Shown: positions 530 through 7,123 of the stretch, one piece after another | Position numbering within the stretch: position 1 is the stretch's first letter | How the letters are laid out: every line of letters starts with the position of its first letter | Assembly (NCBI GenBank): GCA_017525035.1 | Contig: JAFXTH010000023.1 | Span: 115,687-179,686, forward strand | Direction of reading: 5' to 3' | Origin: Bacilli bacterium | GTDB lineage: Bacteria; Bacillota_I; Bacilli_A; RF39; UBA660 | DNA length: 64,000 nucleotides | The notes under the pieces: generated by a model | Seen by the model: the letters and a program-made list of their open reading frames with translations, nothing else | The model's database searches: none | Told to the model about the DNA's origin: nothing | Made by a program: the position numbers and the translations under genes

Positions 530-553
530 AGAAAAAAGAGCAAAGCTCTTTTT
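530..553 (-). terminator. Rho-independent terminator ending the bacteriocin operon
   Basis: Stem aagagc/gctctt (536-541 / 545-550) with loop aaa, followed on the minus strand by a T-run. It overlaps the stop codon of the 55-aa ORF. Confidence 0.5.
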
Positions 554-719
554 AACAAACAACATAATAGTATATATATCTTAAAAATGTACCTAAGTAA
601 GTTCCTGCATTAAATGTAGCTAACATAATGGCACTCGATGAATATACTATTAATGGCAATAATAATACTTCAAGTATTACCTTTCTATTATTTATTACAA
701 TATTTATGATATTGTGCAT
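552..719 (-). CDS. 55-aa hydrophobic peptide, candidate bacteriocin immunity protein
   Basis: Hand-translated: MHNIINIVINNRKVILEVLLLPLIVYSSSAIMLATFNAGTYLGTFLRYIYYYVVC. It has two hydrophobic segments. Its ATG overlaps the end of peptide B (ATGCACAATATCATAA). It is below the ORF-track size cutoff. Confidence 0.4.
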   Translation of the reverse strand: MHNIINIVINNRKVILEVLLLPLIVYSSSAIMLATFNAGTYLGTFLRYIYYYVVC

Positions 720-877
720 AATTTCTTTTCTTTTAATCGTCTTATTGATGATCCGAAGCTTCTACCCAAGCTTCGTATTGCTTTTACCCCTTCTATAAAG
801 GCAGTGATTAAAGAACCAGTTATTGATGATCCACCATCAATGTTTTTTAGTTCTTCTCTTGATAAATACTTATTCAT
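704..877 (-). CDS. Double-glycine-leader bacteriocin precursor B (57 aa)
   Basis: Hand-translated: MNKYLSREELKNIDGG / SSITGSLITAFIEGVKAIRSLGRSFGSSIRRLKEKKLCTIS. The leader is of the LSxxELxxIxGG type and the mature part is cationic and amphipathic. The start overlaps the stop of peptide A. Confidence 0.7.
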   Translation of the reverse strand: MNKYLSREELKNIDGGSSITGSLITAFIEGVKAIRSLGRSFGSSIRRLKEKKLCTIS

Positions 878-1022
878 TACATTTATCAGGATTTACGAAA
901 CCATCAATTACACCAATTAAAAAGATTACTCCTCCTATTATTCCAAGTCCAGCTAAAAAAGATAATCCTCCACCTGTTATTTGTTTTAATTCATTTTTGC
1001 TCGTTTGCTTAATATTATTCAT
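870..1022 (-). CDS. Double-glycine-leader bacteriocin precursor A (50 aa)
   Basis: Hand-translated: MNNIKQTSKNELKQITGG / GLSFLAGLGIIGGVIFLIGVIDGFVNPDKCNE. The leader ends in GG and the mature part is hydrophobic with GxxxG-like motifs. The ATG overlaps the stop of the upstream accessory gene. Confidence 0.75.
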   Translation of the reverse strand: MNNIKQTSKNELKQITGGGLSFLAGLGIIGGVIFLIGVIDGFVNPDKCNE

Positions 1023-1443
1023 CTCCTTTTAATGTTTTTATTAAATATTCAAATATCGTCGTTTTATTAGTTACTATTTCATATTTAACAATTGTATTGT
1101 CTATTAGCTTATTCTCCTTCATATCCTTTATATTTATTATTATTTTCTTATAATAAGTATTCTCATATAAATAATCTTCTACTTTTTCAATTTCGTAAGT
1201 AAATGTGTTCCTTTCTATAATTATTTGATTATTTTCTGTAATATTTTTGAGATTATCTATAGTCGTTAACACTTCTATTTTCTTATTTGATATTTTAGAT
1301 ATTCCAACATAATAGTCTTCAATATTATTATTAAATAATAATATTCCTAATAAAAGAACAATTAAAATAGATACTACTGCTATATATTTCTTTAAATCTA
1401 TTTCTATATTTTTAAAATTCTTTTGAAAACTAACTAAGTCCAT
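1015..1443 (-). CDS. Small single-pass membrane protein, probable bacteriocin export accessory protein
   Basis: ORF track 1015..1533 trimmed to the ATG at 1443 (MDLVSFQKNF...), which is preceded by GGAGG. It overlaps the ABC stop by 14 nt. It has one N-terminal TM segment (AVVSILIVLLLGILLF). The function is inferred from position only. Confidence 0.45.
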   Translation of the reverse strand: MDLVSFQKNFKNIEIDLKKYIAVVSILIVLLLGILLFNNNIEDYYVGISKISNKKIEVLTTIDNLKNITENNQIIIERNTFTYEIEKVEDYLYENTYYKKIIINIKDMKENKLIDNTIVKYEIVTNKTTIFEYLIKTLKGDE

Positions 1444-3502
1444 AATCCTCCAAGTTACAAACTTCGTCGTATAAATCATTATTATCAAATCTATGTGAGA
1501 TAACAATAATTGTTTTTTCATGGAATTTATCAAATATATTTTTTAAGATAATTCTTTCTTTATCAATATTAATTTCGCTAAATGATTCATCTAATATATA
1601 TATGTTACTATTTTTTAAAAATGCTCTTGCCAATATGATTCGCTGCCTTTCTCCTCCGCTTAGATTGGTAGCATTTTCATCTAAAATCATATTGTAACCA
1701 CTACCATTTTTGGCTGCTATTTCATCTAATAACATACACTTTCCTATTTCATATACCTTGTTTTTGTCACGTGTATTTTTCAATATTAAATTTTCATATA
1801 AGGTATCATGAAAAATATATTCATCCTGTGAAACATATGTTACTTGTTCTCTTAAAGACCATAAGTTAATGTCATTTATAGCATTTTCACCTATTAAAAT
1901 CTTACCTCTCTGTATTTCTAAATAACCAGCTATTAATTTTGCAAGAGTGCTTTTCCCGCTTCCTGATGAACCATGTATTAATATTTTCTTTCCTTCTTTA
2001 AATACAATACTTAAATTATTAATAACGTTATTCGTACCATAGCAATATGATAGATGTTTAATGATTAAATCCCCTTTTGTATTCTTCAACGGATTTAAGT
2101 CATAATATATTTTTTCTTCTTTTAAATTTAACAATTCATTGATTCTTTCTATTGTTAATTTTATCTCATTATGCATTAACGTAACATTCAATATATTTCT
2201 TATTGATCCAATATTATAGAAAACAATGCTATTAAAAGTAATTAGACTAGAAAGTGACATTTCATTATTAATAATCAGTTCTCCTCCTATTAACAATATC
2301 AATAAAGAAATAACACTTGTAGCAGTATTTTCTATCAATTTTTTATTATTTATTTTGTTTGTAAAATAATAGTTTAAAGAAATATATTTATTGTATTTTA
2401 TAGAAAATTTTTCTTTAATTTTTTCTAAAATATTTAAGCTTTTAATTGTATTTATTCCATTTATTAATTCAATTATATTCGAGTTAACTTCTGCATTTTC
2501 TTCTTTTAATTTTCTAATATCATAATAGATAATTTTGTTATAAATCAATGTTATTAAAGAAAAGAATATTATTACTACTAATGTAAATAGTAAAAGTTTA
2601 AAATTAATTAATGATAAGGTTATGATTGAAATAAGTGCTATCAAAGAATCTAATAATACTGTTACTAATAAGTTGCATATCGTATCTTTTAAATTATCTA
2701 AATCAGAGATTCTAGATAATACTTCACCAGTAGTTCTATTTTTAAAATATAAATGAGGAAGTGACAAAATATGATTTAATGAATCGTTGATTAATATATA
2801 GTCTAGTTTGTTACTCACAAAGTTTAATAGTTTTTCTTTTAAATAATCGAGAGTATTTTTAATCAAGTGTATGATGAACAAAATGAATATTAGACCATAA
2901 AGGTTATTAAGTGAACTATGGCTTATCGATCTATCTATTACGTATTGAAATTCAAACGAAACTATTATACTGAATAACACAAAAAGAATTGAAAAAGATA
3001 AAATAGTTATCAAAGCACTTCTATTTGAAAAAAGATATTCTTTTATTATATTTTTTATTAAGTTTTTTTCTTTTATTATGGGAATTTTTTTGTTTGGAAT
3101 GAAGTATAAAAAGTTTTTAGTTGATATTGATTTGAACTTGTCAACATCCATTTTTATTATTCCTCTTGCTGGGTCGGCAATTATGACATTATTATTCTTT
3201 TTATCAATCTTGTGAACTACGACAAAATGTTTATTTTTCTTATCAATCACAACATGTGCAATGCAAGGAAGATATTTTTCTTCAATATCTAAAACATCAC
3301 CTTTTACTCCGTATGAAGAAAAGCCTAATTTCTTCCCTGCTTCTATTAAAGATAAGGCATTGACTCCACTACTAGATGTAAAAGTTAAATTTCTTAAATA
3401 TTCCTTAGATACATCTCCATTATGTACTCTAACTATTGTAAGCAAAGAACATATACCACAATCGTTAGGTCCATCCTGCATTACACATTCATATTTTCTC
3501 AT
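1430..3502 (-). CDS. Bacteriocin-processing ABC transporter with N-terminal C39 peptidase domain
   Basis: N-terminus QDGPNDCGICSLLTIV carries the C39 catalytic Cys context. There is a six-TM-like core, Walker A GSSGSGKST, signature LSGGERQR and Walker B IYILDE. Confidence 0.9.
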   Translation of the reverse strand: MRKYECVMQDGPNDCGICSLLTIVRVHNGDVSKEYLRNLTFTSSSGVNALSLIEAGKKLGFSSYGVKGDVLDIEEKYLPCIAHVVIDKKNKHFVVVHKIDKKNNNVIIADPARGIIKMDVDKFKSISTKNFLYFIPNKKIPIIKEKNLIKNIIKEYLFSNRSALITILSFSILFVLFSIIVSFEFQYVIDRSISHSSLNNLYGLIFILFIIHLIKNTLDYLKEKLLNFVSNKLDYILINDSLNHILSLPHLYFKNRTTGEVLSRISDLDNLKDTICNLLVTVLLDSLIALISIITLSLINFKLLLFTLVVIIFFSLITLIYNKIIYYDIRKLKEENAEVNSNIIELINGINTIKSLNILEKIKEKFSIKYNKYISLNYYFTNKINNKKLIENTATSVISLLILLIGGELIINNEMSLSSLITFNSIVFYNIGSIRNILNVTLMHNEIKLTIERINELLNLKEEKIYYDLNPLKNTKGDLIIKHLSYCYGTNNVINNLSIVFKEGKKILIHGSSGSGKSTLAKLIAGYLEIQRGKILIGENAINDINLWSLREQVTYVSQDEYIFHDTLYENLILKNTRDKNKVYEIGKCMLLDEIAAKNGSGYNMILDENATNLSGGERQRIILARAFLKNSNIYILDESFSEINIDKERIILKNIFDKFHEKTIIVISHRFDNNDLYDEVCNLEDYGLS

Positions 3503-3553
3503 TTCTCACCTCCTCTAATATGAATTATTATTCATCGGTGAAAAATTTCCTCA

Positions 3554-4004: not shown

Positions 4005-5459
4005 TTATAATGCTATTTTTTCTTTATAAAATTCTCTTATTTTTCTCTTAGCAAGACTTGTGTAAGCTTTTCCTTCCCAATCTTTTCTTGGCCCAAATGA
4101 GAAAGTATCAGTCATTATTACAACTCTATCATCATTCTTTAATAGATGATCAACAGTAACTACTTCATCATTAACTTTTGCTCCAATCATAGTATTTCCA
4201 ATATCAGGTCCAAGCTTATAAGCTAAGTCTATTATTGTAGAACCTTTAGGTAATTCAATCTTGTCACCATTTGTTGTATACACATATACTTTTTCTCCAA
4301 ATAATTCATTCTTTACTTGAACAACAAACTCTTCGTTATCTTTGAACATTGAATCAAGTTCTACTAAAGATGTGAAGAATTGTGATTTGCTTGCTAAATC
4401 TTCTTGCATTACTCTTCTTGCATCACCTTTTAGTAAGTCCCAGTAAGCAGTTAATCCAAAGGATGCTATTTTATCCATATCAAATGTTCTTATTTGTGTT
4501 TGTACAAGTTTATCATTTGGTCCAAAAACAGTTGTATGTAGGCTTGTATACATATTTGTTTTAGGATTACATATATAATCTTTAAATCTACTATTTAATG
4601 GATGATATTCTTTATGAATTACTCCTAGTGCTCTATAGCAATTATCTACTTCATCTACCATTATTTTTAGTGCTAATAAATCGTGTATATCAGATAGTTT
4701 TTGACCTTCATTTAGTCTTTTATAAATACCATAAATATTCTTTGTTCTTACCTTTATTTCATTAGGTATATTTTTAGCATTCAATAGTTCATTAATTCTA
4801 GCTAGCATTGCTTTAAGCATTGCATCGCTTTCATCTTCTATACTCTTCTTTTTCTCTTCTAGCATTTGATATTTGCTTGGTAATAAGTATTTTAATGACA
4901 AATCTTCAAGTTCTGATTTAATTCTATAAGCACCAATATAGTATGCAAGTGGTGCAAAAATTTCTAATGTTTCTAAAGCATTTTCTTGTTGCTTTGTTGC
5001 TGATTTAAATTGTAATGTTCTCATGTTATGAAGTCTATCGGCTAATTTAATAATAATTATACGGACATCTTGTCTTATTCCAGTTATTATCTTTCTTGTA
5101 TTGGCGGCGTTTTGTTCTTGTTTGGAAGAAAAATTCATTTTGGCAAGCTTAGTAACTCCATCTACTAGATTTGCTACATCTTGATTGAAATAATACGCAA
5201 TATCTTCCTTAGTTGTTTTTGTGTCTTCTAAAGTGTCATGTAAAAGTGCAGCACAAATAGTATTTGTATCAGCATGCATTTCAGCTAAAATACAAGCAAC
5301 TGTAGTTGGATGAACTATGTATTCTTCCCCACTTTGCCTAGTTTGTCCTTTATGCATAGTTTCTGCAAATTCATAAGCCTTTTTAATTGTTTCTACTTCT
5401 TCTAAAGATAAATAATAACTAACCATCATAATTAGTTGTTCTAAAGTTGCACTTGTCAT
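4005..5459 (-). CDS. rel: RelA/SpoT-family (p)ppGpp synthetase/hydrolase, short form ending after the TGS domain
   Basis: HD hydrolase motif HPTTVACILAEMHADTNTICAALLHDTLEDT. Synthetase region RTKNIYGIYKRL...HDLLALKIMV. TGS-like region VYVYTTNGDKIELPKGSTIIDLAY. The start is trimmed to the ATG at 5459 (MTSATLEQL), preceded by GGTGGGGTGA; the longer GTG start would overlap a terminator. Confidence 0.85.
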   Translation of the reverse strand: MTSATLEQLIMMVSYYLSLEEVETIKKAYEFAETMHKGQTRQSGEEYIVHPTTVACILAEMHADTNTICAALLHDTLEDTKTTKEDIAYYFNQDVANLVDGVTKLAKMNFSSKQEQNAANTRKIITGIRQDVRIIIIKLADRLHNMRTLQFKSATKQQENALETLEIFAPLAYYIGAYRIKSELEDLSLKYLLPSKYQMLEEKKKSIEDESDAMLKAMLARINELLNAKNIPNEIKVRTKNIYGIYKRLNEGQKLSDIHDLLALKIMVDEVDNCYRALGVIHKEYHPLNSRFKDYICNPKTNMYTSLHTTVFGPNDKLVQTQIRTFDMDKIASFGLTAYWDLLKGDARRVMQEDLASKSQFFTSLVELDSMFKDNEEFVVQVKNELFGEKVYVYTTNGDKIELPKGSTIIDLAYKLGPDIGNTMIGAKVNDEVVTVDHLLKNDDRVVIMTDTFSFGPRKDWEGKAYTSLAKRKIREFYKEKIAL

Positions 5460-5475
5460 ATTATCACCCCACCAA

Positions 5476-5512
5476 CAAAAAAACGCACAGACCTTCACAT
5501 GGCCTGAGCGTT
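5476..5512 (-). terminator. Rho-independent terminator between cysS and rel
   Basis: Minus-strand stem acgctcaggcc / ggtctgtgcgt with one mismatch and one G-U pair, followed by TTTTTTT. Confidence 0.5.
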
Positions 5513-5689
5513 CTTATTCATAACATAGCAACATAAAACTTTTATGCGTGATGACACATTACAGCACAAAATATCTTTTGCAAAGTAATTGAAATTATGT
5601 AACTTTCTTTTAATCACGTAAGTCATAAAAGTCACCTCACATAAATAATTTAAAATCATATTACTACTTTAAACTATTTATGTCAACAC

Positions 5690-7123
5690 CTAATTATTAA
5701 ATTTAATATCCCAATCTATATCTTTAGATCTGTCATTTATGATAATACCTTTTTCTGCTAAAGTGTTTCTAATCTTATCTGCTTCTTCATAATTTTTTTC
5801 ATTTTTGTAGTTAATTCTATCTTCTACCATCTTGTTAATATCATCAATATTTAATCCTGAAGCACTTAGATATTTATTTCTAATGCTGTTAATAACTTTT
5901 TCTGGATTTTGTTGCAATAGACCTAAAACTTCGTAATGGTCTATGATACTTCCAACATAATCAACAGCTGTTTGAATATTGTTTTCTTTTATAGCATTAT
6001 TAATTAAAGTAACATAATTAAATAAGTAAGATAATGCTTGAGAAGTATTAAAATCATTATCCATAGCATTTCTAAAGTTATCTTCAACTTCTTTATATTC
6101 CTTAGATTCTTTATTAGCAACTTTATCTTCTTTAAGTTTATTAACTTGATTAATTAATTTATAAAAAGTATATACTTGTTCTTCTGTTTTAGTAAATAAC
6201 CCATCAACTATATTTAAATCAGATTTATAGTTATTTAAAAGCATAGTCATTTTTATTACATCTGGATTATATTCTTTTAATAAATCTTCAAATAATATTC
6301 CATTACCTAAAGATTTGCTCATCTTTTGTCCATTTATTTTTACTAAACCATTATGCATCCAGAATCTTGAGAATTGTTTTCCTGTTAATGATTCTGATTG
6401 AGCAATTTCATTTTCATGATGTGGAAATCTTAAATCTTTTCCACCGCCATGAATATCAAGTGTTTCTCCAAGATATTTCATACTCATTGTAGAACATTCG
6501 ATATGCCATCCTGGTCTACCTTTTCCCCATGGAGATTCCCAAAAGATTTCGTCATCTCCTGCAGCTTTCCATAAAGCAAAATCTCTATCATCTTCTTTTC
6601 CTGGTTCAATGTCTTTTCTAACACCAGACATTGTTTCATCAATTATTTGATGTGACAATTTACCATATTCTTTGAAAGATGATACTCTAAAGTAAACATT
6701 TCCTTCAGGTGTTGCATAAGCATGCCCTTTTTCTATTAATTTAGAAATAAAATCAATCATGTCATTAATACACTCAGTGGCTCTTGATTGAATTGTTGGT
6801 GGTTCTAATCCCAACTCATCAAATTCTGCATCAGTCTTTTTAATAAAAAACTCTGCATAATCAAGTGGATTCATACCTTTTTTTCTTGCATTGATAATAA
6901 TTTTATCATCAACATCAGTATAGTTTCTTACGTATGTTACATCGTATCCAATTGATCTTAAATACTTTCTAATAGTATCAAAAATAACCGCTTGATATAC
7001 ATGACCAATATGAGCATTATCTGAAACAGTAATACCGCAGGCGTACATCTTAACTTTTCCTTTTTCTAAAGGAACGAATTCTTCTTTTTTTCCGTCTAAT
7101 ACATTGTATATTTTTAATGACAT
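5690..7123 (-). CDS. cysS: Cysteine--tRNA ligase
   Basis: Class I signatures HIGH-type (NAHIGH) and KMSKS (KMSKSLGN). The start is trimmed to the ATG at 7123, 8 nt after AGGAG. Confidence 0.95.
   Translation of the reverse strand: MSLKIYNVLDGKKEEFVPLEKGKVKMYACGITVSDNAHIGHVYQAVIFDTIRKYLRSIGYDVTYVRNYTDVDDKIIINARKKGMNPLDYAEFFIKKTDAEFDELGLEPPTIQSRATECINDMIDFISKLIEKGHAYATPEGNVYFRVSSFKEYGKLSHQIIDETMSGVRKDIEPGKEDDRDFALWKAAGDDEIFWESPWGKGRPGWHIECSTMSMKYLGETLDIHGGGKDLRFPHHENEIAQSESLTGKQFSRFWMHNGLVKINGQKMSKSLGNGILFEDLLKEYNPDVIKMTMLLNNYKSDLNIVDGLFTKTEEQVYTFYKLINQVNKLKEDKVANKESKEYKEVEDNFRNAMDNDFNTSQALSYLFNYVTLINNAIKENNIQTAVDYVGSIIDHYEVLGLLQQNPEKVINSIRNKYLSASGLNIDDINKMVEDRINYKNEKNYEEADKIRNTLAEKGIIINDRSKDIDWDIKFNN

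Follow-up and report, generated by a model that had tools for sequence, protein, structure and literature searches.

We analysed a 64,000-nucleotide stretch of contig JAFXTH010000023.1 (the window) from a bacterium of the RF39-type Bacilli. On its minus strand, at positions 552-3502, lies an operon of five overlapping genes which, judging from its sequence, probably specifies a class IIb-like two-peptide bacteriocin. Two of the genes encode small prepeptides, A and B, with double-glycine (GG) leaders. They are preceded by the genes for a peptidase-containing ABC transporter (PCAT) and a minimal adaptor, which would process and export the peptides, and are followed by the gene for a small membrane protein, C, which would neutralise them in the producer. 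Far from being a variable island, the cassette belongs to the ancient core of this reduced-genome gut order.

The mechanism that we propose is the following. PreA and preB would be synthesised with GG leaders of 18 and 16 residues, respectively, and the C39 peptidase domain of the exporter would cleave after the GG pair. The transporter, together with a small membrane-anchored adaptor of the membrane-fusion-protein type, would secrete the mature peptides. In the membrane of a target cell, the hydrophobic, anionic A and the amphipathic, cationic B would pair via their GVIDG and GRSxG motifs, possibly locked by a disulfide between the conserved C-terminal cysteines, and would jointly permeabilise the target. 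The producer would be shielded by the membrane-anchored C with its B-like tail.

The operon and its small proteins

The first-pass annotation of the window had placed five open reading frames (ORFs) on the minus strand. We found all five at the same positions, with translations identical letter for letter: the PCAT exporter (690 aa, 1430-3502), an accessory protein (142 aa, 1015-1443, starting from an ATG with a GGAGG site), prepeptide A (50 aa, 870-1022), prepeptide B (57 aa, 704-877) and ORF C (55 aa, 552-719). The start/stop overlaps of 14, 8, 8 and 16 nucleotides that had been reported follow from these coordinates. They had been taken as a sign of translational coupling, and we infer from them a coupling along the operon that is plausible and nothing firmer, since well-placed Shine-Dalgarno sites occur at the ABC and accessory genes only. 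The GGAG of gene A abuts its ATG, and no Shine-Dalgarno site was found at B or C.

All five genes are under purifying selection. In the comparison with the closest species (G015, whose ABC protein is 88% identical), dN/dS was 0.08 for the ABC gene, 0.25 for the accessory gene, 0.08 for A, 0.19 for B and 0.47 for C. In two more distant pairs, values ranged from 0.12 to 0.51 where dS was unsaturated; A gave no ratio in the G009/G002 pair, where dS was saturated. Could the small ORFs nevertheless be chance frames, or decaying remnants devoid of function? The lack of ribosome-binding sites of their own at B and C, and the fact that C is unannotated in NCBI, would fit. However, dN/dS values well below 1, conservation across more than 140 genera and the presence of more than 1000 database clusters already refute this explanation, and we give it a negligible probability. 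As to the description of the operon as unannotated, it holds for ORF C, which is absent from NCBI and was found only in Logan and ENA gene calls, but not for A, B and the accessory protein, whose sequences from the same contig are already present in NCBI nr. The B profile retrieved at least 1028 protein clusters, nearly all of them unnamed, and a few relatives were auto-named "bacteriocin [Bacilli bacterium]".

Both prepeptides carry consensus GG leaders. The leader of A (MNNIKQTSKNELKQITGG, 18 residues, 969-1022) shows E-8, L-7, I-4 and GG at the consensus positions, and that of B (MNKYLSREELKNIDGG, 16 residues, 830-877) shows L-12, S-11, E-8, L-7, I-4 and GG. The two leaders are homologous to each other, and the mature sequences are unrelated. 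Mature A (GLSFLAGLGIIGGVIFLIGVIDGFVNPDKCNE, 873-968, 32 aa, 3248.8 Da) is a uniformly hydrophobic helix of the transmembrane type (hydrophobicity H ~0.9, hydrophobic moment muH ~0.1) with a net charge of ~-2. Mature B (SSITGSLITAFIEGVKAIRSLGRSFGSSIRRLKEKKLCTIS, 707-829, 41 aa, 4412.2 Da) is an amphipathic helix with muH up to 0.79 and a net charge of ~+5.5, in agreement with the cationic amphipathic character that it had been given at first. A single cysteine near the C-terminus had been noticed in A and B; we found exactly one in each, and one in C as well. GxxxG-type motifs had been ascribed to A in the plural: one true GxxxG (GVIDG) is there, and no more than one.

Conservation of these features was assessed in 90 A/B pairs. 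In A, G34 and G38 (GVIDG) and P42 were kept in all 90 pairs and Cys45 in 89; in B, G37 and G41 (G-R-S-x-G) were kept in all 90, RR in 85 and Cys53 in 89. The search pattern partly enforced the conservation of GxxxG in A, but not that of the B residues or of the Pro and Cys of A. The GxxxG of A holds a conserved Asp and that of B an Arg, the pairs being 77 D/R, 8 D/K, 4 D/Q and 1 E/Y. Together with net charges of opposite sign and the cysteine pair, these residues suggest that A and B form a specific, possibly disulfide-linked heterodimer. A search for A-B covariation was uninformative, the top mutual-information pairs lying in variable regions and being confounded by phylogeny.

Alternatively, A and B might be two independent one-peptide products, either two class IId-type bacteriocins or a bacteriocin and an inducing peptide, that share an exporter without forming an obligate pair. 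Their unrelated mature sequences and opposite charges would be compatible with this, as would weak matches to the inducer-peptide models EntF and BlpC, which are confined to the leaders. In contrast, A and B are adjacent in 90 of ~95 loci, both keep GxxxG and a single Cys, the divergence of A correlates with that of B (Mantel rho 0.39, p 0.001), and no sensor kinase gene is adjacent. We regard independent products as rather improbable.

The class IIb reading is supported by the families that A resembles. Of 12 A orthologues, 10 match TIGR03949, the class IIb model for lactobin A/cerein 7B (best E 2.2e-7), and 10 also match the lactococcin G-beta model. The A of the window scores 16.9 bits on TIGR03949, below the cut-off of 21.5, so that the relation holds at the family level only. 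A Flp-pilin reading of A was ruled out by the lack of a G/xxxxEY motif and by the linkage to a C39 exporter.

Variations at the peptide genes were observed. In G003, G012, G016 and G007, A starts with ATT or ATC and not ATG behind the same ribosome-binding site (AAGGGGGA), the frame being otherwise intact (locus L004, 3986-4129; L005 and L006, same positions, minus strand; L007, 3983-4117). Such a start may lower the dose of A, and standard ORF callers would miss these genes. In six other loci, each from a different species (L025, L028, L031, L041, L062 and L089), 0.5-1.8 kb of extra DNA lies between A (~4140) and B (4600-5900), which could correspond to additional peptide genes or to small insertions.

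The product of ORF C has one transmembrane helix; its N-terminus is basic, and its tail (GTYLGTFLR...VVC) is similar to that of B. Indeed, the C-terminal halves of B and C align (hhalign E 2e-4, probability 47%), and C carries an invariant GxxxG motif. C-like ORFs were found in ~80 of 95 loci. On these features, C is a candidate immunity or anchor peptide.

The exporter and its accessory protein

The placing of GG leaders beside a C39 exporter was borne out by the exporter itself. A single polypeptide combines a C39 domain (PF03412, E 7.9e-30), a six-helix ABC membrane domain (PF00664, ABC_membrane) and an ATPase domain (PF00005, ABC_tran). Its catalytic positions are filled by Gln (Q9), Cys (C15), His and Asp, and NDCGIC, KHFVVVH and IADPA align with the corresponding residues of PCAT1. 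The protein aligns over its full length with PCAT1 of Clostridium thermocellum (4RY2, E 4.5e-94) and with ComA of Streptococcus (4e-87). It has the same catalytic Gln/Cys/His/Asp as these two proteins, but its identity with them is ~30% and it is partnered with a minimal adaptor. It scored below cut-off on both TIGR01193 (388.9 bits, cut-off 523.85) and NF045998 (296 bits). These comparisons place the exporter within the wider PCAT superfamily, as a divergent member.

In 83 of 100 loci, the accessory gene comes directly 3' of the ABC gene. Its product gave no Pfam match, HlyD included. The AlphaFold2 model (pLDDT 89) has a transmembrane helix at the N-terminus and a beta-barrel domain on the outside, and the best PDB folds retrieved by Foldseek were the beta-barrel domains of BesA, MacA, Spr0693 and MexA (probability 1.0). 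With an E of only ~0.01 and a TM-score of 0.42, the likeness of this model to a miniature adaptor of the membrane-fusion-protein type is suggestive and unproven. Compared with MacA, BesA, MexA and Spr0693 and with the HlyD-type proteins LcnD and ComB, the accessory protein has the N-terminal anchor in common, its beta-barrel superposes at ~3 Å over 80 residues, and its gene likewise comes directly after the ABC gene, but it is devoid of the coiled-coil hairpin and lipoyl domains.

A similar pair exists in mycoplasmas, formed by the Mbov_0121-family transporter (NF045998) and the MAG1140 protein (NF045999), every score in this comparison being below cut-off. Weak and almost exclusive matches to NF045999 (MAG1140_fam), over its full length, were obtained for 21 of 33 accessory orthologues; the accessory protein of the window reached 10.3 bits, the cut-off being 35. 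The link comes from this member-by-member scan only, since a whole-genome search with the hidden Markov model stayed at noise level and matched control genomes too. In G649, a mycoplasma-type genome in which TGA encodes Trp, a gene for a full-length C39 ABC exporter is followed by one for a 125-aa single-transmembrane protein and then by ybeY (locus L121, G649:C1:143474-145432), and no GG peptide gene adjoins this exporter pair. Our literature search found no description of the function of the mycoplasma pair, its locus tag being merely mentioned in two papers.

Taken as a whole, the cassette has much in common with class IIb operons such as those of lactococcin G, plantaricin EF/JK and lactobin A/cerein 7B: two prepeptides with GG leaders encoded side by side, GxxxG motifs for helix packing, the gene of a small membrane protein right after them, and a C39 ABC exporter dedicated to the peptides, together with its accessory protein. 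It differs from them in several respects. Here, the five genes overlap in a single operon, the accessory protein has 142 aa and not ~450 aa, A is anionic, one Cys is kept per peptide, there is no regulator, and the tail of the candidate immunity peptide is like that of B. Besides, the cassette is core to a whole order and not strain-variable. We found no paper describing it in a literature search. Class IIb-like in parts, it would be new in its miniature adaptor, in the one conserved Cys per peptide, in the B-like candidate immunity peptide and in its core-gene behaviour.

Distribution across the order and possible roles

The first-pass annotation had staked its reading on the conservation of the small ORFs in homologous loci, and conserved they are: the order ABC-accessory-A-B-(C) was kept in 100 loci, and B was found in 142 of 145 genera. 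The ABC gene occurred in each of the 16 congeneric species and in most of the family, and in other genera too its downstream flank proved to hold A, B and C. In a class-wide sample of 401 genomes, B was found in all 50 sampled genomes of the window's own family and, among the remaining ~350, only in G042, which belongs to a different family; three mycoplasma-like genomes gave leader-only matches. Since in G649 no GG peptides adjoin the exporter and the small transmembrane protein, the peptides are specific to the RF39-type lineage plus G042. The carriers are metagenome-assembled genomes of 0.6-1.9 Mb from cattle, sheep, rabbit, mouse, chicken and human guts, variously labelled Bacilli, Tenericutes, Mollicutes or Mycoplasmatota, and include Ca. 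Pelethosoma, which NCBI places no more precisely than in Mycoplasmatota incertae sedis. The pairwise divergences of ABC and YqeY showed a modest correlation (rho 0.35, p 0.003), and tblastn gave no plasmid match for A or B. Records labelled "Muribaculaceae", "Elusimicrobia" and "Ignavibacteriales" were not counted as signs of horizontal transfer, since they look mislabelled or mis-binned; the ABC protein of L093, for instance, scored 884 bits against that of the window.

In 3 of 17 congeneric species (G007, G008 and G014), gene A is interrupted by an inserted element at the same break point, directly after the GVIDG codons. The pieces lie at 900-1070 of L010 (G008:C108) and 1076-2810 of L129 (G008:C98), at 3975-5061 of L009 (G014), and at 3983-5024 of L007 (G007) and 1-430 of L130 (G007:C106). 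In G008, one end of the element carries a ParB-like gene and the other a gene for a 565-aa large serine recombinase with Resolvase, Recombinase and zinc-ribbon domains. The tail that A lacks (G-FVRPLSCNN-stop) is intact right after the recombinase gene, before B and C, and excision of the element would be expected to restore A. By analogy, the insertion resembles the prophage or skin-type insertions that act as a "regulatory switch". Since it is split by a mobile element in three species, gene A is dispensable there, and not essential.

The class IIb assignment made in the first-pass annotation is supported by the architecture of the operon, by the TIGR03949 matches and by the homology of the exporter with PCATs, but a number of observations weigh against it. 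Class IIb peptides are normally cationic, and mature A is anionic, so that the pair departs from the rule that both peptides are cationic. The A and B of the window fall below every curated family cut-off. C is absent from ~12 of 95 loci (~12%), and from G042 despite intact A and B. The distribution is that of a core gene. Of the 401 genomes that were sampled from the order, 383 matched the B profile (365 of 380 among those of high quality), almost always with a single copy, unlike typical accessory bacteriocins. The cassette occupies a housekeeping site: it immediately precedes rpsU-yqeY in 47 of 80 loci and adjoins ftsA in the window's genus. Mean distances of A (0.46) and B (0.51) are close to that of YqeY (0.43), and the exporter is less conserved (0.58). 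The peptides are best called a putative bacteriocin. Finally, expression of the operon in the gut has weak evidence, in the form of fragmentary RNA: contigs of a sheep-gut metatranscriptome span 794-953, 1854-2068 and 2930-3497, and a second RNA run spans 1090-1318, with possible DNA carry-over in these runs. The contig over the A/B junction (794-953, RNA run X26) is of low depth and misses 2 nucleotides at 849, in the leader of B, which may reflect strain variation or faulty assembly.

Since an order-wide, single-copy distribution under strong constraint is atypical of bacteriocins, we considered a non-antagonistic core function, which we regard as possible although unlikely. Exported A and B, with C as their membrane partner, would then serve the producer itself, in signalling or in an envelope or membrane complex, and the bacteriocin-like features would reflect a shared export route. 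The near-universal and mostly single-copy occurrence in the order, the site beside rpsU-yqeY or ftsA, and a strong purifying selection that leaves the peptides more conserved than the exporter all speak for such a role. Likewise, the GxxxG motif common to all three small proteins would fit a fixed heteromeric complex, and six response regulators encoded in the genome could in principle sense a peptide. According to PMC7018657, PCATs export GG peptides that act in signalling as well as bacteriocins. However, a kinase or regulator was not linked to the cassette in any locus examined, nor was a regulator seen near it in the window, as had been stated at first. Moreover, mature peptides of 32 and 41 residues, of transmembrane or amphipathic type, are far more bacteriocin-like than pheromone-like, the A family is recognised by a class IIb bacteriocin model, and the interruption of gene A in three congeneric species shows that it can be dispensed with there. 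A two-peptide bacteriocin remains the reading that we prefer.

A broader scenario can be put forward, tentatively and with little confidence. The cassette would be a lineage-defining core system of an auxotrophic order, in which a disulfide-linked A-B heterodimer routinely permeabilises neighbours for nutrients, or in which A, B and C form a fixed complex that serves a dependent lifestyle. C would be an anchored decoy derived from B, and gene A would act as the attachment site of serine-recombinase elements that switch the system off and on.

Context of the operon and significance

Upstream of the ABC gene, the operon leader (3503-3527, minus strand) holds, ahead of the ABC start, a strong Shine-Dalgarno sequence (GAGGAGGTG). 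The 78-nucleotide gap between this start and the upstream 131-aa ORF showed no clear sigma-70 promoter. At the other end, the terminator that had been reported after the last ORF was recovered as an intrinsic-terminator-like hairpin with a T-run (553-533, minus strand; AAAAAGAGC-TTT-GCTCTTTTT), which overlaps the stop codon of C. Two terminator-like sites occur in the region, 0.4 being expected. The flanks are housekeeping genes, with ftsA downstream and the 131-aa ORF, rel and cysS upstream. The Rel/SpoT homologue (4005-5498 of the window) has HD, synthetase and TGS domains and ends at ~497 aa, without the usual C-terminal regulatory domains. A regular-expression scan of all six frames found no other GG-leader peptide locus in this 1.25-Mb genome of 28% G+C.

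Bacilli of the RF39 type are common gut inhabitants of humans and livestock, with tiny genomes and many auxotrophies. To our knowledge, they have never been cultured. With their short, unmodified chains of 32 and 41 residues, the mature peptides lend themselves to direct synthesis, and they offer a rare experimental handle on this uncultured order. Should they prove active, A and B would represent a new class IIb family, one whose peptides may be joined by an intermolecular disulfide and whose export adaptor is minimal. The cassette is kept by ~95% of the species, and its peptides are as conserved as housekeeping proteins, so that it is likely to be central to the life of these bacteria among other bacteria.

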